Shown here in pieces: positions 7,921 to 17,658 of a DNA stretch of 64,000 nt. The number at the start of each line of letters is the position of its first letter. Positions within the stretch are counted from its first letter, which is position 1. This DNA comes from an uncultured Chthonomonadaceae bacterium (GTDB lineage Bacteria; Armatimonadota; Chthonomonadetes; Chthonomonadales; Chthonomonadaceae). A program made the position numbers and the translations under genes. The notes below the pieces were generated by a model. That model did not search any database and was not told the DNA's origin. It worked only from the letters and a program-made list of their open reading frames with translations. The stretch spans positions 32,001 to 96,000 of the forward strand of contig CAWIEK010000037.1 of assembly GCA_963835065.1 (NCBI GenBank), in the 5' to 3' direction.

Positions 7921-8166
7921 GTTTCCGGCTCCTCTGCATTGATATTCTGCTATGGAGAACCAAAAACCTCTTTTGCAGGCAAGTTTTCACGCTCCAATTG
8001 ATTCTTCTCATCCAATGAGGGGCACAAATTAGATTCGTTAGCCGTCGCTCACTTGACATCAATACCAAAAGTCTGTAATATATTCCATAGCGCATTTTGT
8101 AATTCCATGCGTCTCCTGTATCCGCCTCTGATGTTCCGAGAGGCGTTAAAATGCAAAGGTACAAAC

Positions 8167-8433
8167 ATGACCTTGACGATTGACTTGCCCGATGAACTGG
8201 CCTCTCGACTAAGTGCGCTTCTGCCCGCAGAAGAGCGTGGACGCTTTGCCGTTTCCGCAATTGCCGATGCGCTTCTCGCTCAAGAGCGTGACTCCGCCGA
8301 ATGTATTGCCGCAGTCGAGGAGGCATTTATTGATGTAGATAAGGGCCGCACCATCTCCTTTGAAGAAGAAGAAGCGCGTTGGCAGCTGCAAAAGACCGCG
8401 TTGCTGACGAAGACTGGCGTTCATGTGGCATGA
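8167..8433 (+). CDS. Putative type II antitoxin
   Basis: MTLTIDLPDEL N-terminus, acidic C-terminus, ATGA overlap with the downstream toxin. Confidence 0.75.
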   Translation: MTLTIDLPDELASRLSALLPAEERGRFAVSAIADALLAQERDSAECIAAVEEAFIDVDKGRTISFEEEEARWQLQKTALLTKTGVHVA

Positions 8434-8828
8434 GCGATACAGAAGACAAAGACGAACCAACGCGGACTTATGCGTTGCGTGTTACCCAACGCGCTCAACG
8501 TGATCTGGACGCGGCAACCGTTTATTTCGCTGAAACCGCTTCACCGGAGATTGCTGTCATGTGGCGTGAAGGGATATACGCGGAGTTGGCTTCGCTTGCC
8601 ACATTTCCGCGCCGTTGTCCGCGTGTACCGGAGCAATTCCATCGTGAGGTGCGCCAACTTTTGTACCGCCGCTCTGGAAGTCAGACAGCCTATCGTATCC
8701 TGTTTGCTATTGCCGGCGAAGAGGAAACATCACCGGATGCGCCGACTGTAATTATTCTTCATGTCCGTCACACCGCCGCTCGTCCCATAACACGAACACA
8801 AGTTCGTATAATCGAGGCAGAGCAATAA
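8430..8828 (+). CDS. RelE/ParE-family toxin
   Basis: Y.LRVT.RA.RDL, L..FP.RCP, YRILF, V.ILHVRH motifs. Confidence 0.88.
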   Translation: MSDTEDKDEPTRTYALRVTQRAQRDLDAATVYFAETASPEIAVMWREGIYAELASLATFPRRCPRVPEQFHREVRQLLYRRSGSQTAYRILFAIAGEEETSPDAPTVIILHVRHTAARPITRTQVRIIEAEQ

Positions 8829-9393: not shown

Positions 9394-9663
9394 ATGACCT
9401 TTACCATTGACTTAACGGCCTCGGAGGAGGCGTACTTGGTGGCAGCAGCAAAACAGCGAGGGATTGCGCCAGACGAGTTTCTCAAGCAACTTGTAACGAA
9501 CTGCCTGCCGAAACGTGCGGACGCGACCTTTGCAGAAATTTTAGCGCCGGTTCACGAGTACAGCCGAGAACACGGGTATACCGAGGAAGAATTGGACGAG
9601 TTCGTAGAAGCCGAAGTTGCCGCGTATCGTGCCGAACGCCTCCACTGCTGCTGTTTTCAGTAG
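9394..9663 (+). CDS. Putative antitoxin whose native 3' end is displaced to 12174-12215
   Basis: MTFTIDLT..EEAYL..AAKQRG; SD GAGGT; the native C-terminus AERRAKQKSNAHE* appears after the inserted segment. Confidence 0.7.
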   Translation: MTFTIDLTASEEAYLVAAAKQRGIAPDEFLKQLVTNCLPKRADATFAEILAPVHEYSREHGYTEEELDEFVEAEVAAYRAERLHCCCFQ

Positions 9664-9971
9664 CCGCCTTCCAGCCACGAGACGTACAAGTCGTAATAGT
9701 GGGCGAAGTCTTCGGGCAATCCTTCCTCATCTAAATCTTCTACGCCAATCCAGCGCTCTTTGCCTTTTGCCTGCACCTTGCATTGCAGCGTGTCACTGGC
9801 GCCGACTTGAAAGCCGAGGACTTGCACGGGGCTGCCAAGCAGGTTGGCGCGAAACGGCGTTTCCACTTGCTCCAAAAACGTGTTTTCCCACGCGCTCATC
9901 TGCTCGTACTCGCCGTAAGCGTCCGTCAGTATCTCGTCAATCTCGTCGCGCTTTTCGGATGGTTCCGCCAT
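9657..9971 (-). CDS. CcbP-like (calcium-binding family) small acidic protein, copy 1
   Basis: EILTDAYGEYEQMSAW...PFRA motif; SD AGGAGG; protein identical to copy 2. Confidence 0.65.
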   Translation of the reverse strand: MAEPSEKRDEIDEILTDAYGEYEQMSAWENTFLEQVETPFRANLLGSPVQVLGFQVGASDTLQCKVQAKGKERWIGVEDLDEEGLPEDFAHYYDLYVSWLEGGY

Positions 9972-10036
9972 TTTGCCTCCTGTCCTGTGTTGTTGCCTTG
10001 CGTAGGTGTTTCGTTTATCGGTGTGTACCGGTGGAA

Positions 10037-11281
10037 TTAGCCGCAGCACTGCTTGTACTTTTTGCCGCTGCCGCAGGGGCAGGGTTCATTACGGCCCGGC
10101 TTCTTTCCGCTAAACGGGGCGGGCGGGGCCGGCGTTTTCAGGGCTTCCACCAGGCGCTCGCTCAGGGGGATTGTGCCGGGAAGCGCCCTGTTGTCGTAAT
10201 CCGGGCGGTAACTGCGCAGCAGAATTTCGCCGTCCCGCTGCCACTCGAAATCAGGGAGCGAAAACAGGCTGCGGATCACCTGGGTGGCGCGTTCCGGGTC
10301 GCGCTCGGCCAGCATGCGTACCGGGATCAAAGACATATCGGGGTCTTGAATATACTCGCTCACGATAGCCCGGTAGGGTTTCGACTTGACCTTTTTGGGA
10401 TCGGCAAATGCTTCCGCAACCAGTCCCAGATCGGGATGAAACTCCATGCCTTCCCGCTCATCAAAGGTCACGCCGACGCTTTTCACGTCGTCCTCCCAAT
10501 CTATTTGCGAGTATTGCAGGTGCTTGGGCAGGGTTTGTATCGGGGGCGACTCTGTTTCGCCCGTCGCAAGGGCGGCTGCGGCGTTTGTTTTCTGAACGCG
10601 ATGCAGCATGTAGGCGTTCATGCGCGTGACGAACTCCCCTACCGGCCACACAACCAAATCCGAGCCGAAGAAGGCGACGAAATCCGGCTTTTCCGCGCGC
10701 TGTAGTTCGATAGCCTCTTCCCTCTTCGCCGGGTTGCGAAACATCAGGGCGGGCGACTTCTGAATGGCTTCCGCCGCCCCGCGCAGCACCTCGTTTTTGC
10801 CGGAAGGCGGATACAGACTGATCGCCCCACTCAGCATCCAGCCGTCGCCCATCGGCACAATCCGCGCCTTGATAAAGTGGCCGGGCAGCATCTTATCGAA
10901 ATACGCGCGTCCCATGTTGGAGCGGACGCGGTACACAAGGTCATCCAACAGGTTGTCGAACACCAATACATCGCCCTCGTGCCGCAAAATCTCAAACAAC
11001 CCTTCCACGACGTTCTTCCAGCCCAGCATGATTTCCTGGTCCGCTTCGGGCAGGTCGGGGTGGTCGCTTACAAAATGGTCTACCACCGTCAGGCCGTCTT
11101 CCAGCCGATATTGAAGCAGAAAATAGTCCATAAAACTGACATACTGCGGGTTACTCACCGGTTCCGGGGTGTCAAAATAGTGGATTTGCGCTTCCACCAG
11201 ATCGCCGGCAAACCGCTTGTCCTCGCCGAATCGCACCAGTTGCCGCTTCAACGCGCCCGCGTGTTCCATCAAATCCATCAT
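10037..11281 (-). CDS. SEC-C metal-binding domain protein, copy 1
   Basis: C-terminal [26 protein letters not shown] upstream of MMDL. Confidence 0.9.
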
Positions 11282-11506
11282 GCTCGCGCTTCCTCCAAAA
11301 CCCGCGCCTCTTAATAAATGAGACTTGCTGCCCGCCCTCAATCATCACTTCAAACATACGTTTTCTGCTGTCATTTTATCGCCATAGTCCGAAAACAGAA
11401 ATAAGCCGAAGAACAGAATCAGGCAGGAACTAAAGTGTGCCGCGATGAATAGGATGTAGACAAGATTGCACAGAACCACCCATATCAGGGTCAGGGAGTG
11501 TCCAGA

Positions 11507-11875
11507 ATGAAGCGATGCATACAAGTAGCGGTTGGTCCTGGAATATTCTCATGTGAGCGATCAGCCTCATTCACAGTAAACGACAAATACTACACCCTGC
11601 TTGCAGACGCTTCTTTCTTCGACGGCGATCTCATGCAGGTGCGGGTTATCGCCATACAAGGCGACCAATGCTTGATTGACCTGCCCAATGAGACGTTCAC
11701 AACCGGCAACCGCATGTACGTGCCAACAGTCATGCTTCTGGATATGTCAACAGCCCTACAAACTGAGGAGCCATCCGCAAAAGAGATCGCAAAGTTGGCA
11801 ATGGCTGGCGGCGCGTTTGACTGGCTTGCCGATGAACCTGATCTGTATGATGATACTTGCGGCGAAAGCGCTTAA
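11507..11875 (+). CDS. Hypothetical protein with antitoxin-like acidic tail, copy 1
   Basis: ORF conserved in both copies; tail GGAFDWLADEPDLY. Confidence 0.65.
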   Translation: MKRCIQVAVGPGIFSCERSASFTVNDKYYTLLADASFFDGDLMQVRVIAIQGDQCLIDLPNETFTTGNRMYVPTVMLLDMSTALQTEEPSAKEIAKLAMAGGAFDWLADEPDLYDDTCGESA

Positions 11876-11900
11876 AATAGAAAGAAAAAGAGGCGCAGCC

Positions 11901-11929
11901 TTGTATTTATTCGTCAATAGACGTATAAT
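11901..11929 (+). promoter_or_regulatory. Sigma70-type promoter of the putative antisense RNA, copy 1
   Basis: TTGTAT-17 nt-TATAAT; conserved in copy 2 at 15042-15070. Confidence 0.7.
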
Positions 11930-11934
11930 AGGAG

Positions 11935-11998
11935 GTATCCAGCCAACGTTGGTAGCGCTGACTGGACACGCGCCTAGCCTACGCTAGTGGCGGTTTTT
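11935..11998 (+). ncRNA. Putative ~65-nt antisense antitoxin RNA, copy 1
   Basis: Promoter, then hairpin TCCAG...CTGGA, then hairpin CGCCTAGC/GCTAGTGGCG plus T5; overlaps the 3' end of the small minus-strand ORF. Confidence 0.5.
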
Positions 11999-12094
11999 AC
12001 ACCGGTCACTAAGCATCAGCCAGAGCGCGACCGCGTAATACGCCGTACCAACGACGTAGAACGCGGCGGCAAGCACATGGTTCAGAGTTTCCAT
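11984..12094 (-). CDS. 36-aa single-TM peptide, candidate type I toxin, copy 1
   Basis: METLNHVLAAAFYVVGTAYYAVALWLMLSDRCKNRH; strong SD AAAGGAGGAGG; hydrophobic core with charged tail. Confidence 0.65.
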   Translation of the reverse strand: METLNHVLAAAFYVVGTAYYAVALWLMLSDRCKNRH

Positions 12095-12207
12095 GCTTTG
12101 CCTCCTCCTTTCTATGGGCAGCGGGTTGTGTGTCGGCGGTTGCGCGAACAACCCCGGCGGCTTGCATAGTCCGGCCGAACGCCGCGCCAAGCAAAAATCG
12201 AACGCGC

Positions 12208-12677
12208 ATGAATAAACCGGAGGAACGCGAGAAAGCGGTCTTCGATACCGGTGTTGTCCTTCAGGCGGCCCTGTCAGAAAGCGGGCCGTCTTTTGGCTCG
12301 TTTCATCTGATGGAAGAAGACAAAATTATTGTTGTACTTAGTCCACAAGTGCGCGAAGAGTACGAAGATGTTCCACGCGCCCTGCAATTCGGCAGAAGAA
12401 CCCATTGCTTACTGAAGAATACGTTCAGGCATTTTTGGCCCGACTGGACGCCAAAACACAATTGGTAACGGTGATACGGCCTTACCTACAGTATCCGCGT
12501 GATCCTAATGATGAGTTGATACTTAATCTGGCAATCCAAGAGCAGGTAGATTATCTTGTGACCCGCGACAAAGATTTGCTCACTTTGAACAGGAGCAGCG
12601 ATTTTCGGCTGTTATATCCCTACATTCGCGTCGTTGATCCACTTACCTTTGTGATTGCGGTGACGCCGAAGCCGTAG
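12208..12677 (+). CDS. PIN-domain toxin (putative TA toxin), frameshifted near 12370-12405
   Basis: AVFDTGV, RDPNDE..L.LA....DYLVTRDKDLL motifs split over two frames. Confidence 0.82.
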
Positions 12678-12798
12678 AAATAGGGCTTTGATGCCATCAA
12701 GATAACCTATGCTGCCAATCTATTCAGCGCCCTGCTGCGGTTCTCCATACGCCAGTTGCCGCAGCAGTTCATCTCCTGATATAGCTCCTCTGCTGTTT

Positions 12799-13113
12799 TC
12801 AATAGCCGCCTTCCAGCCACGAGACGTACAAGTCGTAATAGTGGGCGAAGTCTTCGGGCAATCCTTCCTCATCTAAATCTTCTACGCCAATCCAGCGCTC
12901 TTTGCCTTTTGCCTGCACCTTGCATTGCAGCGTGTCACTGGCGCCGACTTGAAAGCCGAGGACTTGCACGGGGCTGCCAAGCAGGTTGGCGCGAAACGGC
13001 GTTTCCACTTGCTCCAAAAACGTGTTTTCCCACGCGCTCATCTGCTCGTACTCGCCGTAAGCGTCCGTCAGTATCTCGTCAATCTCGTCGCGCTTTTCGG
13101 ATGGTTCCGCCAT
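12799..13113 (-). CDS. CcbP-like small acidic protein, copy 2
   Basis: Same protein as 9657..9971. Confidence 0.65.
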   Translation of the reverse strand: MAEPSEKRDEIDEILTDAYGEYEQMSAWENTFLEQVETPFRANLLGSPVQVLGFQVGASDTLQCKVQAKGKERWIGVEDLDEEGLPEDFAHYYDLYVSWLEGGY

Positions 13114-13179
13114 TTTCGCCTCCTGTCCTGTGTTGTTGCCTTGCGTAGGTGTTTCGTTTATCGGTGTGTACCGGTGGAA

Positions 13180-14424
13180 TTAGCCGCAGCACTGCTTGTA
13201 CTTTTTGCCGCTGCCGCAGGGGCAGGGTTCATTACGGCCCGGCTTCTTTCCGCTAAACGGGGCGGGCGGGGCCGGCGTTTTCAGGGCTTCCACCAGGCGC
13301 TCGCTCAGGGGGATTGTGCCGGGAAGCGCCCTGGTGTCGTAATCCGGGCGGTAACTGCGCAGCAGAATTTCGCCGTCCCGCTGCCACTCGAAATCAGGGA
13401 GCGAAAACAGGCTGCGGATCACCTGGGTGGCGTGTTCCGGGTCGCGCTCGGCCAGCATGCGTACCGGGATCAAAGACATATCGGGGTCTTGAATATACTC
13501 GCTCACGATAGCCCGGTAGGGTTTCGACTTGACCTTTTTGGGATCGGCAAATGCTTCCGCAACCAGTCCCAGATCGGGATGAAACTCCATGCCTTCCCGC
13601 TCATCAAAGGTCACGCCGACGCTTTTCACGTCGTCCTCCCAATCTATTTGCGAGTATTGCAGGTGCTTGGGCAGGGTTTGTATCGGGGGCGACTCTGTTT
13701 CGCCCGTCGCAAGGGCGGCTGCGGCGTTTGTTTTCTGAACGCGATGCAGCATGTAGGCGTTCATGCGCGTGACGAACTCCCCTACCGGCCACACAACCAA
13801 ATCCGAGCCGAAGAAGGCGACGAAATCCGGCTTTTCCGCGCGCTGTAGTTCGATAGCCTCTTCCCGCTTGGCAGGATTGCGAAACATCAGGGCGGGCGAC
13901 TTCTGAATGGCTTCCGCCGCCCCGCGCAGCACCTCGTTTTTGCCGGAAGGCGGATACAGACTGATCGCCCCACTCAGCATCCAGCCGTCGCCCATCGGCA
14001 CAATCCGCGCCTTGATAAAGTGGCCGGGCAGCATCTGATCGAAATACGCGCGTCCCATGTTGGAGCGAACGCGGTACACAAGGTCATCCAACAGGTTGTC
14101 GAACACCAATACATCGCCCTCGTGCCGCAAAATCTCAAACAACCCTTCCACGACGTTCTTCCAGCCCAGCATGATTTCCTGGTCCGCTTCGGGCAGGTCG
14201 GGGTGGTCGCTTACAAAATGGTCTACCACCGTCAGGCCGTCTTCCAGCCGATATTGAAGCAGAAAATAGTCCATAAAACTGACATACTGCGGGTTACTCA
14301 CCGGTTCCGGGGTGTCAAAATAGTGGATTTGCGCTTCCACCAGATCGCCGGCAAACCGCTTGTCCTCGCCAAATCGCACCAGTTGCCGCTTCAACGCGCC
14401 CGCGTGTTCCATCAAATCCATCAT
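13180..14424 (-). CDS. SEC-C metal-binding domain protein, copy 2
   Basis: SEC-C motif; three visible amino-acid differences from copy 1 (K/Q, R/H, N/T). Confidence 0.9.
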
Positions 14425-14647
14425 GCTCGCGCTTCCTCCCAAACCCGCGTACTGTAACGAATCAATACTTGCTGCCCACCCTCAACCATCACTCCAAACA
14501 TACGTCTTCCGCTGTCATTATATCGCCACACTCCGAAAACAGAAGAAGCTGAAAAGCAGAAGCAGGCAGGAACTAAAGTGTGCCGCGATGAATAGGATGT
14601 AGACAAGATTGAACAGCATCACCTATATTACGGCAGGGAGTATCAGA

Positions 14648-15016
14648 ATGAAACGACATATACAAGTCACGGCTGGTCCCGGAATCTTCTCGTGTGAGCG
14701 ATCAGCCTCATTCACAGTAAACGACAAATACTACACCCTGCTTGCAGACGCTTCTTTCTTCGACGGCGATCTCATGCAGGTGCGGGTTATCGCCATACAA
14801 GGCGACCAATGTTTGATTGACCTGCCCAATGAGACGTTCACAACCGGCAACCGCATGTACGTGCCAACGGCTATGCTTCTGGATATGTCAATAGCCGTAC
14901 AAACCGATGAGCCATCAGCAGAAGAGATCGCAAAGTTGGCAATGGCTGGCGGCGCGTTTGACTGGCTTGCCAATGAACCTGATCTGTATGATGATACTTG
15001 CGGCGAAAGCGCTTGA
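14648..15016 (+). CDS. Hypothetical protein with antitoxin-like acidic tail, copy 2
   Basis: Paralog of 11507..11875. Confidence 0.65.
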   Translation: MKRHIQVTAGPGIFSCERSASFTVNDKYYTLLADASFFDGDLMQVRVIAIQGDQCLIDLPNETFTTGNRMYVPTAMLLDMSIAVQTDEPSAEEIAKLAMAGGAFDWLANEPDLYDDTCGESA

Positions 15017-15075
15017 AATATAAAGAAAAAGCGGCGCAGCCTTGTATTTATTCGTCAATAGGCGTATAATAGGAG

Positions 15076-15141
15076 GTGTCCAGCCAGAAGTTCTCAGGCG
15101 CTGACTGGACACGCGCCTAACCTACGCTAGTGGCGGTTTTT
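15076..15141 (+). ncRNA. Putative antisense antitoxin RNA, copy 2
   Basis: Promoter at 15042-15070, stem GTGTCCAG/CTGGACAC, terminator-like hairpin plus T5. Confidence 0.5.
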
Positions 15142-15237
15142 ACACCGGTCACTAAGCATCAGCCAGAGCGCAACCGCGTAGTACGCCGTACCAACGACGT
15201 AGAACGCGGCGGCAAGCACATGGTTCACAGTTTCCAT
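15127..15237 (-). CDS. 36-aa single-TM peptide, candidate type I toxin, copy 2
   Basis: METVNHVLAAAF...; retains a structured 5' UTR and an upstream promoter. Confidence 0.65.
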   Translation of the reverse strand: METVNHVLAAAFYVVGTAYYAVALWLMLSDRCKNRH

Positions 15238-15349
15238 GCTTTGCCTCCTCCTTTCTATGGGCAGCGGGTTGTGTGTCGGCGGTTGCGCGAACAACCCCGG
15301 CGGCTTGCATAAACCGCTGCCCAAGAGTTCACAAGCCGGAACACAAGTC

Positions 15350-15382
15350 ACATTGTTGCACACTTTATGTGCAGGTGTCAAG
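15350..15382 (-). promoter_or_regulatory. Putative promoter/operator for the small peptide gene
   Basis: Minus-strand TTGACA followed by the palindrome TGCACA-taaag-TGTGCA and a weak -10 (AACAAT). Confidence 0.45.
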
Positions 15383-15387
15383 GCCAT

Positions 15388-15849
15388 TTACATCACAGTA
15401 ATCAGTTCACAAACCAAGCGCTGTTTCTCCCTTGAAAGGCTTAGAAATTTTTTCTGAGTTTCCACAGGCATAATCTCGTAGTTCAAAAACACGGGAGTCT
15501 CTAACAACTTACCATCCAATGTATCGAAACCTGCTTGTGCGTACACAATTTCAGGACGCATTTTTAAGCCAGCAGCCACTTGAAGACAAGTTTTACGCTG
15601 AACTGTGTAACCTGCCTGCCGTCGCCGTTCTACCTGCCCCCACGCCCAATGTGAGTAAGTACGTTCTGATTTATCTTCAGATAGTTGCTTGCCACCCTCT
15701 TCCTTACCTATTTGATGCAGTTGTTCTTCCGGGAGAGATTGCAGCCAGTCTTCAACACGTTTTGCACATTGCTTTCGAGTCAGACCTTGCTTCTCTCGCT
15801 CCTCTTTAACCCATTGTCCAAAACGTATGCGTAAATTCTCAGTTTCCAT
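15388..15849 (-). CDS. XRE/HTH-type transcriptional regulator
   Basis: FGQWVKEEREKQGLT...CAKRV and ..QVAAGLKM.PE.VYAQAGF patterns; AT-rich. Confidence 0.65.
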   Translation of the reverse strand: METENLRIRFGQWVKEEREKQGLTRKQCAKRVEDWLQSLPEEQLHQIGKEEGGKQLSEDKSERTYSHWAWGQVERRRQAGYTVQRKTCLQVAAGLKMRPEIVYAQAGFDTLDGKLLETPVFLNYEIMPVETQKKFLSLSREKQRLVCELITVM

Positions 15850-16012
15850 TGATCGCTCCATCATTTTCAAGAGAACCGTTGAATAGATTGAGTATACCAG
15901 CATGTGACATATTTGTGCAAGGAATGACTGTAATGAAGTTGCGTATAAAAACGAGTTTGGCGCAACAGTGAGCCACTGTTGCGCCACGAAGTTGAGAAAC
16001 AGGTGAAGAAAC

Positions 16013-17658
16013 TTACTCGACGCCGACGGGGGCATGGGCGCGGGGTGGCGGGGGCGTCCAGGTGGGGTCGTCGTTGGCGAGCAGGTGCAGGCCTAGGAAC
16101 TCGCCTAGTTCTTCATTGGCGTGGCGGTCTACCCACTGTCCGAAGTTTTCTTCCCGCGAACGGCTGCGTTTTGAACTGCCGCAGCAGGTTTTCCAGCGCG
16201 TACTTCACCTTGTCGGCGGGCACTTTGCGCGAAATGGGACGCACGAACTTGGCGTCCGCGCCCAGCCGCCCGCCCAGACACACGTCATACGCTTCCACCT
16301 GCGTCGCCGTCGTTCAAACGCGCCAGACAGCCCTGCAAGCCGATGTCGCCGATGTGATGCTGGCCGCAACTGTTGGGGCAGCCGTTGAGATGGATGCGGA
16401 TCGGCTCGTCCCACAGCAATTGCGCTTCCAGATGCGCCACGATCTCGCGCAGGCGGGCTTTGGTTTCCGTAATCGCCAGATTGCAGAACTCGTTGCCCGT
16501 ACACGAGACCGCGCCCCGATGGAACTCCGATACGTCCCACAGAAAGCCCGCATTGCGCAATTCCTGTTTCGCCGCTTCCAACCGGTCGGCGTCAATGTGC
16601 GGGAACAGATAGTTTTGCTGATTGGTCGTGCGCAGGTTGCCCTCGCAGTATCGGTCGGCAATGTCGGCAGCCGCGAACATCTGCTCCGTCGTCAGCCGCC
16701 CCGTAATCACGGATACGCCGATCCAGAATTTCCCTGCCTGCTTTTGCGGATGGATGCCCAAATGATCCTGCTGCACGGTTCCCATCGGCTCGGCAACCGG
16801 TTCGGCGGGTTCCGGCGTCCAGCCCAATCGCTGAATCAGCGCTTCCCGAAACTTCTCCGCGCCCCAATCCGCCACGAGGAACTTCAGGCGCGTATGGTTG
16901 CGGCGCTTGCGGTAGCCGTCATCGCGGAAAATTTCGGTCACGGCCCGGCATACGTCCAAAACCTGCTCCGGCTTGACGAAAATCTCCAACTGCTGCGCGA
17001 AGTACGGCTGCGTACTCAATCCGCCGCCCACGCGCACATGGAAGCCGATTTCCTCTTTGCCGTCCCGAACGCGCTTCACGGCCTGTATGCCCAAATCGTT
17101 GATTTCCGGCTGATTGCAATGGATGGGACAGCCCGAAATAGAGATTTTGTACTTGCGCGGCAGGTCGGAGAAGTCTTTGTTATCCAAAAAGTAATTGGTC
17201 ACGTCCTGCACGATCTGGCGCGTGTCGTACAATTCGTTAGGGTCCACGCCCGCCACCGGGCAGCCGCACACATTGCGCGTAATGTCGCCGCAAGCGCCCG
17301 TCGTGGTCAGGCCCACCGCGCGCAGTTTTTCAATGGCAAGCGGCAGGGTGTGGATGGTCAGCCAGTGGAATTGAAAATTCTGGCGCGTGGTGATGTCGGA
17401 AATGTTGTTGCCGTACTCCCGCGCCACTTCCGCAACCGCGCGCATCTGCGCGGAACTCATGTCGCCGCTGGGAATCTTGACGCGCAGCATGAAATGCCCC
17501 ACGTTCGGCTGCTGCTGATAAATGCCGTACCAGCGCATACGCGGGAAATCATCGGGAGCTATGGTCTCGAAACCGGTCTGAGCGTAGCGCAGCACATCGT
17601 CCCACACGTCCAGCCCGTCTTTCGCCTTCTTTATCGCTTCTACATCCGCCTTGGACAT
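16013..17658 (-). CDS. Ferredoxin-dependent nitrite/sulfite reductase (siroheme, 4Fe-4S), apparent frameshifts near 16305 and 16165
   Basis: TTRQNFQFH, LPRKYKISISGC, SCTGNEFC and NGCPNSCGQH.I.DIG motifs; C-terminus continues in other frames. Confidence 0.9.

Follow-up and report, generated by a model that had tools for sequence, protein, structure and literature searches.

The Cassette and Its Two Copies

The window analyzed here, a 64,000-nucleotide stretch from an uncultured Chthonomonadaceae bacterium, carries two copies of a small cassette, the first of which had been flagged in a preliminary description as a candidate type I toxin-antitoxin module. In copy 1 the minus strand encodes a 36-residue peptide (11984-12094), a candidate toxin with a single predicted helix and a basic tail, behind a Shine-Dalgarno (SD) sequence at 12104-12113 that matches the 3' end of this genome's 16S rRNA perfectly over 10 nt. 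The small hydrophobic frame, very strong SD, and charged tail first described are thus all present, with a best 19-residue hydropathy of 1.69 and a net tail charge of +2. Past the stop codon on the same strand lie a 14-bp hairpin (11935-11969), with its G-U pairs on the minus strand and a 7-nt loop unlike that of copy 2, and, immediately 3' of this hairpin, an anti-SD tract (11930-11935). Facing the gene on the plus strand is a sigma-70-type promoter (11901-11929) in which a weak -35 box, TTGTAT (11901-11906), is followed after 17 nt by a perfect -10 box, TATAAT (11924-11929). A short antisense RNA is predicted from this promoter (11936-11998, plus strand, with its start placed 7 nt past the -10 box), ending in an imperfect hairpin over the stop codon and a run of five T residues (T5) at which read-through is likely.

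Copy 2 encodes a peptide with one amino-acid difference (15127-15237, minus strand) within a complete module. Its 5' leader (15247-15345, minus strand) comprises the SD (15247-15256), a helix with arms at 15259-15267 and 15314-15322, which is the stem reported earlier for this copy, and a second covarying helix that crosses the first. A predicted toxin promoter follows at 15352-15381 (minus strand), with a perfect -35 box, an 18-nt spacer, and a TG-extended -10 box matching at four of six positions. The plus strand (15042-15141) carries the convergent promoter (15042-15070), the anti-SD complement, the hairpin, and T5 at 15137-15141. Three further copies exist in the genome: C3 has a close one, and the two on C16 are distant.

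Copy 1 lies within a 2.5-kb segment (9648-12168, unstranded) that was duplicated from 12790-15311, is 96.8% identical to it, and has no transposase inside. A 10-bp direct repeat at 9631-9640 and 12174-12183 bounds the duplicate, an arrangement that fits either an insertion that duplicated its target or a tandem duplication and a later deletion. The duplicate stops 74 nt 5' of the peptide start codon, and copy 1 consequently lacks both the toxin promoter and the 5' arms of the leader helices; its remnant leader (12116-12168, minus strand) holds only the 3' arms and ends at the breakpoint, 12168. The best toxin-promoter score upstream of copy 1 is 3.2, versus 9.1 for copy 2, and the antisense promoter is retained. 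The flagged copy is a 5'-truncated duplicate, and the complete module is copy 2 (15042-15381). Judged from these elements, copy 1 is probably half-disabled: its toxin gene is likely without a promoter, and its antisense RNA is likely still made. A type I module, as first suggested, remains the best reading of the family.

The duplicate interrupts a small gene that runs from 9394 onward and resumes at 12174-12215, ahead of a frameshifted PIN gene. The split gene (9394-9663 and 12174-12215) is antitoxin-like by our own reading, the Pfam matches being only weak, and the PIN_3 gene behind it (12208-12677) is broken into two frames; together they are likely a dead type II pair. At 8053-8828, a toxin gene of the ParE family (PF05016) and a small frame upstream of it form another type II pair, and the stretch is therefore rich in toxin-antitoxin genes. 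Also duplicated is a protein (10037-11341 and 13180-14442, minus strand) that is about 420 aa long, has a SEC-C motif at its C terminus, and adjoins a weak CcbP-like gene.

An Unnamed Peptide Family

A search with a single sequence matched 12 of 42 Chthonomonadaceae genomes at E up to 1, and a 57-row profile matched 14 of the 42 at E up to 0.01, a number reduced to 13 when G002 (internal stop, no frame) was dropped. Among the fetched loci, 35 of 39 profile matches were kept at a score of at least 24. The result is an unnamed family of 35 loci, with one to seven copies in 13 of 42 Chthonomonadaceae genomes (Armatimonadota); because the loci are related, counts across the family are not independent. 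An intact frame of 30-38 aa is present in 28 of the 35, and in the remaining seven the stop is lost, the frame is shifted, or a stop comes early. Outside the Chthonomonadaceae, no credible match was found among 401 sampled Armatimonadota genomes with up to 19 candidates scored per genome, the sole match being an unrelated 100-aa frame. A pattern scan of a genome collection returned 24 loci, divided equally between true members and chance matches, and all 12 true members come from records titled Chthonomonadaceae or Chthonomonadales. All four pattern matches in viral contigs were due to chance, and nine of 11 metagenome matches were not family members. A library of 1.84 billion representatives gave 51 matches, 40 of them 30-38 aa long. 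The 20 clusters sampled for names included five labeled 'hypothetical protein' and none with a toxin name; a 484-aa transporter in one member's cluster did not align with that member.

No family had been recognized for the peptide beforehand, and none emerged from Pfam, NCBIfam, PHROGs, the PDB, or Rfam. The two window peptides have no match in Pfam; 17 members gave only scattered weak matches in Pfam, NCBIfam, and PHROGs; and 57 members gave only scattered hydrophobic matches in Pfam, the best being DUF5337 (two members, E 1.5e-4). The PDB returned only TPR repeats at E 0.66 or worse, Rfam had no match to 20 loci, and phage and plasmid records yielded only matches at E 2-5. Three unnamed atlas clusters at 0.79-0.80 are at the level of leads. 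Flanking genes are unrelated between loci and include no conserved partner gene, integrase, or transposase in the 116 of 125 flanking frames that were scanned. In a genome with seven copies, two cassettes in the same orientation lie about 1 kb apart (L020:1471-1587 and 2553-2669).

The peptides themselves are constrained. In equal-length frames from 13 loci, pN/pS is 0.27, 0.42, and 0.07 in three subgroups; synonymous change exceeds amino-acid change, which at the codon level shows the peptide family to be under purifying selection. Length and a hydrophobic core are kept at 19-50% identity, a basic tail is found in 27 of the 28 intact members, and a His6-Tyr13-Gly16-Tyr19/20 pattern is conserved. 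Hydropathy is moderate (1.2-2.4), and the predicted structure of the copy 2 peptide is a single helix spanning residues 2-33 (pLDDT 83). In one subgroup (L002, L003, L033, L041, and L042) the peptide is 30-32 aa long and one 7-residue turn is missing, which suggests an internal heptad repeat that was gained or lost.

The Predicted Peptide mRNA

RNA structure was assessed in the 27 intact loci with an antisense -10 box (that is, with L010 left out). A long hairpin lies between the stop codon and the antisense promoter, with 88.6% of 396 cells paired across 26 aligned loci (L045 left out) as against 36-52% in slid controls, and with compensatory change at 12 of 16 pairs. Given that its G-U pairs favor the mRNA strand over the opposite strand by 82 to 10, this hairpin is chiefly an mRNA structure. 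The fold of copy 1 agrees, with z -4.4 on the mRNA strand and -1.2 for the short plus-strand RNA (67 nt as folded), so that the earlier assignment of the long hairpin to the small RNA has to be reversed. In copy 2 the corresponding values are -3.2 and -0.6, and the second hairpin of the short RNA is missing from the centroid. The entire predicted mRNA, about 280 nt, folds at z -2 or lower in all 27 loci (median -6.0 versus shuffles).

In 18 of 27 loci, the pyrimidine tract immediately 3' of the hairpin is predicted to form base pairs with the SD. In both window copies the predicted probability of this pairing is 0.98, in keeping with the original suggestion that CCTCCT, the complement of 11930-11935, pairs with the mRNA's own SD. 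Removing the tail lowers the energy needed to open the SD in 20 of 27 loci, from a mean of 6.0 to 2.9 kcal/mol, and in the window copies from 8.0 to 1.1 and from 6.1 to 2.6 kcal/mol. Nine of the 27 loci, both distant C16 paralogues included, show no predicted SD-tail pairing, and the advantage of cognate over non-cognate SD-tail pairs is slight and marginal (p 0.043). At the 5' end, in eight hand-picked loci of the window subgroup, two leader helices that cross one another are each locus-specific (10 of 40320 permutations), statistics that overstate the case, given that each locus had its own window and that the loci are related; a third helix pairing the 5' end has no locus specificity (4605 of 40320). 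The crossing helices may be alternative folds rather than a pseudoknot. At the 3' end, the stretch past the hairpin where the full-length mRNA would finish scores as a terminator in only four of 27 loci.

Within the alignment, no part varies more than the hairpin loop, and copies 1 and 2, whose surroundings are 96.8% identical, have different loops; a recognition loop would be expected to behave in this way. Read on the antisense strand, the loop resembles, in our view, a U-turn (YUNR) loop. Comparison of the two loops (11949-11955 and 15088-15100) places the novelty in copy 1, the copy 2 loop being that of the C3 paralogue.

A unit so strongly structured throughout, and found at unrelated sites, could be a dispersed structured RNA or a non-autonomous mobile repeat in which the reading frame is incidental, and RNA structure can distort codon statistics. 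We consider this quite improbable, given the excess of synonymous over amino-acid change, the retention of length, hydrophobic core, and basic tail (27 of 28) in peptides as little as 19-50% identical, a structure that closes on the SD, and the absence of any transposase or integrase from the 116 flanking frames scanned.

The Convergent Promoter and the Predicted Antisense RNA

The TTGTAT-17-TATAAT promoter originally described is present in copy 1 and, by a weight matrix, outscores 98.9% of 1496 gene-downstream controls from the same genome, though a consensus scan missed it because its -35 box matches at only three of six positions. Across the family, an antisense -10 box with at least five of six matches lies 45-150 nt past the stop codon in 33 of 35 loci, versus 17 of 35 on the sense strand, and the antisense promoter exceeds the 95th percentile of the 1496 controls in 16 of 35. 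Both promoter and hairpin are thus conserved in homologous loci, the hairpin with covariation; loss of this conservation had been named beforehand as an outcome that would count against the module. An internal antisense promoter of the Sok or IsoA kind was not seen by eye in two loci.

One locus departs from this pattern. L010:1501-1614 is an intact family frame whose SD is weak; it has an ordinary terminator, lacks an antisense -10 box and promoter, and is either a tamed copy or a counter-example. Such a locus would suit a peptide that shares the same RNA wiring, with its tight antisense control, but is no toxin, being instead a small and harmless regulator in the membrane that acts, for instance, on a transporter or protease; the conserved His6-Tyr13-Gly16-Tyr19/20 pattern, which suggests a specific contact surface, and the lack of similarity to known toxins lean the same way. 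This explanation is nevertheless unlikely, as L010 also has a weak SD, and as presence in 13 of 42 genomes at one to seven copies, unrelated neighbors, and frequent loss of the frame are more in keeping with a selfish module than with a housekeeping regulator.

Where the antisense RNA ends is a separate matter. The preliminary description had it as a two-hairpin RNA of about 65 nt ending in T5. The two hairpins and the T5 are there, but the fold is no better than shuffles, and the T5 of copy 1 (11994-11998), which covers only the last 15 nt of the frame, has a poor score of -33 on a classical terminator scale. Such a T5 end occurs only in the four closest loci, namely both window copies, the C3 copy, and L005, with scores of -20 to -43, and none of the 27 loci has a terminator scoring above zero at the stop codon. 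Instead, 21 of 27 loci score positive for an antisense terminator that lies upstream of the start codon by 58-173 nt, as compared with seven of 399 random gene starts, and a 65-nt end can no longer be upheld as a trait of the family. By eye, this upstream terminator falls inside the predicted toxin leader in two subgroups; in the window subgroup it sits just upstream of the predicted toxin promoter, outside the toxin transcript. Copy 2 is without one. An AT-rich frame of no Pfam family (15388-16035, minus strand), which ends where the copy 2 toxin promoter starts, stands in place of the upstream antisense terminator that the C3 paralogue keeps.

Because a strong upstream antisense terminator is present in 21 of 27 loci, most of the putative antitoxins likely span the whole gene, at 240-385 nt. 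From these predicted ends, the long form of about 240-385 nt is the somewhat better choice for the family's antisense RNA; that the RNA is short everywhere and the upstream terminator serves as a backstop has a sizable chance, though one short of even. For the window lineage, a leaky antisense form of 63-65 nt is predicted as the nearest end. The imperfect -35 box (three of six) and the unexceptional fold of the short RNA might also be taken to mean that an AT-rich gap has given rise to both promoter and short RNA by chance. We give this very little credence, since 33 of 35 loci keep the -10 box on the antisense strand and 21 of 27 have a matching antisense terminator upstream.

Relation to Known Type I Systems

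At the level of sequence, the cassette has the general make-up by which type I systems are recognized. For a protein of 20-60 aa with a membrane helix, there are peptides of 30-38 aa with one predicted helix; for an mRNA of 150-400 nt with its SD held by an anti-SD, a predicted mRNA of about 280 nt (z -6.0); and for an antisense promoter and terminator unit overlapping the mRNA, predicted promoters in 33 of 35 loci and predicted terminators in 21 of 27. The determinants of toxin mRNAs listed for T1TAdb are those found here, and the antitoxin lengths given there, 60-200 nt, are often exceeded by the lengths predicted for this family (PMC8594479).

In layout, the nearest systems are txpA/RatA and bsrG/SR4 of Bacillus subtilis (PMC3531473, PMC6562991). 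There too the two transcripts converge and overlap at their 3' ends, the peptide is hydrophobic and ends in a charged tail, the SD is very strong (10 bp in the window peptide, 11-12 bp in txpA and yonT), and a helix sequesters the SD, as is predicted for the cassette. Their 3' overlap, about 75-120 nt, compares with a predicted 63 nt or so, or the whole gene, here. A convergent promoter of the txpA-like, tail-to-tail kind is present, and an overlap limited to the 3' end is seen only as the weak T5 of four loci. In contrast to txpA and bsrG there is no peptide similarity, no Rfam match, and no prophage context seen. Homology to TxpA/RatA, BsrG/SR4, or SprG/SprF was rejected, with no match in Pfam, NCBIfam, PHROGs, or the PDB and none in Rfam for 20 loci.

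The ibs/Sib loci of Escherichia coli likewise occur in several chromosomal copies. The Sib antitoxin covers the entire coding sequence together with the ribosome binding site (PMC4147584), as is predicted here for 21 of 27 loci, copy 2 not among them. The Sib repeat of about 140 nt and the Ibs peptides of about 19 aa (IbsA) are smaller than the 240-385 nt predicted and the 30-38 aa found here, and membership was rejected for want of a sequence match to Ibs or Sib. In aapA1/IsoA1 of Helicobacter pylori and in hok/Sok, pairing of 5' and 3' ends makes the mRNA inert and 3' processing frees the SD (PMC5416894, PMC4147584). This 3' lock resembles that of the window module, for which processing is predicted only; the aapA1 and hok antitoxins lie opposite the 5' leader, whereas the antisense promoter here is past the 3' end.

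Fst and Ldr peptides are similar in size (33-35 aa), central glycine, and charged tail, and the window peptide has an A-x-x-x-x-G spacing. The proline of the APxxxG motif, which is essential (PMC8309996), is absent here, and 27 of the 28 intact cores have no proline. Membership in Fst/Ldr was also rejected, since the Ldr model PF13940 matched none of the 42 genomes and no Fst or Ldr family in Pfam matched any of 57 members at E up to 1. Finally, timP/TimR of Salmonella has a covarying pseudoknot in the toxin 5' leader, recalling the two crossing leader helices here; unlike what is proposed below, timP needs no processing to become active, and the leader is the site to which TimR binds (PMC11228461).

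Proposed Mechanism and Implications

What the sequence itself establishes is a peptide family under purifying selection and, with it, a promoter box, an anti-SD, a 3' hairpin that covaries, and an antisense terminator upstream. On this footing it is quite probable that the cassette is a new, unnamed type I toxin-antitoxin family, in which the 36-residue membrane peptide is likely the toxin, a role suggested solely by its shape and by the layers of repression around it. The full-length mRNA would be untranslatable, with its own SD locked by the 3' anti-SD. In the manner of hok and aapA1, the anti-SD would be lost by 3'-to-5' trimming as far as the stable hairpin, leaving the SD accessible. The antisense RNA would base-pair to this trimmed form, probably first at the variable hairpin loop, and in most members would continue over the reading frame and SD to the upstream terminator, giving 240-385 nt. 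RNase III, for which the genome has a gene, as it does for PNPase, would cut the resulting duplex. Were the antisense supply to drop, the peptide would be inserted into the inner membrane, and the cell would slow down or die.

A fuller version of this proposal joins several further claims, and we hold it only tentatively, as possible but doubtful in its entirety. It would make the cassette the first type I family of the Armatimonadota, with one mRNA that stacks a 3' anti-SD to be trimmed away, a 5' leader with crossing (pseudoknot-like) helices, and an unusually long antisense RNA of 240-385 nt covering the whole gene, and with fast divergence of the hairpin loop separating paralogues. If true, three locks, each known separately in other phyla, would be combined in one mRNA.

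Type I systems were stated in 2025 to have been found only in the Proteobacteria, Firmicutes, and Tenericutes, together with a first cyanobacterial candidate (PMC12390103). Searches of the open-access literature turned up no type I system from the Armatimonadota, and the T1TAdb supplements searched name no taxon of that phylum. Whether the narrow range of type I systems is a discovery bias is a question raised in a 2017 survey (PMC5367252). The cassette is a real, unnamed family and, as far as its sequence features indicate, most likely a type I variant in a phylum for which no reports were found. An unrelated family with the full RNA wiring in the Armatimonadota would argue for discovery bias and for repeated, independent origin of such systems. 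The cassette is small enough for tests in E. coli, and its natural variants, including short and long antisense RNAs, changes of the hairpin loop, and broken copies, may offer a handle on how antitoxin length and specificity evolve.
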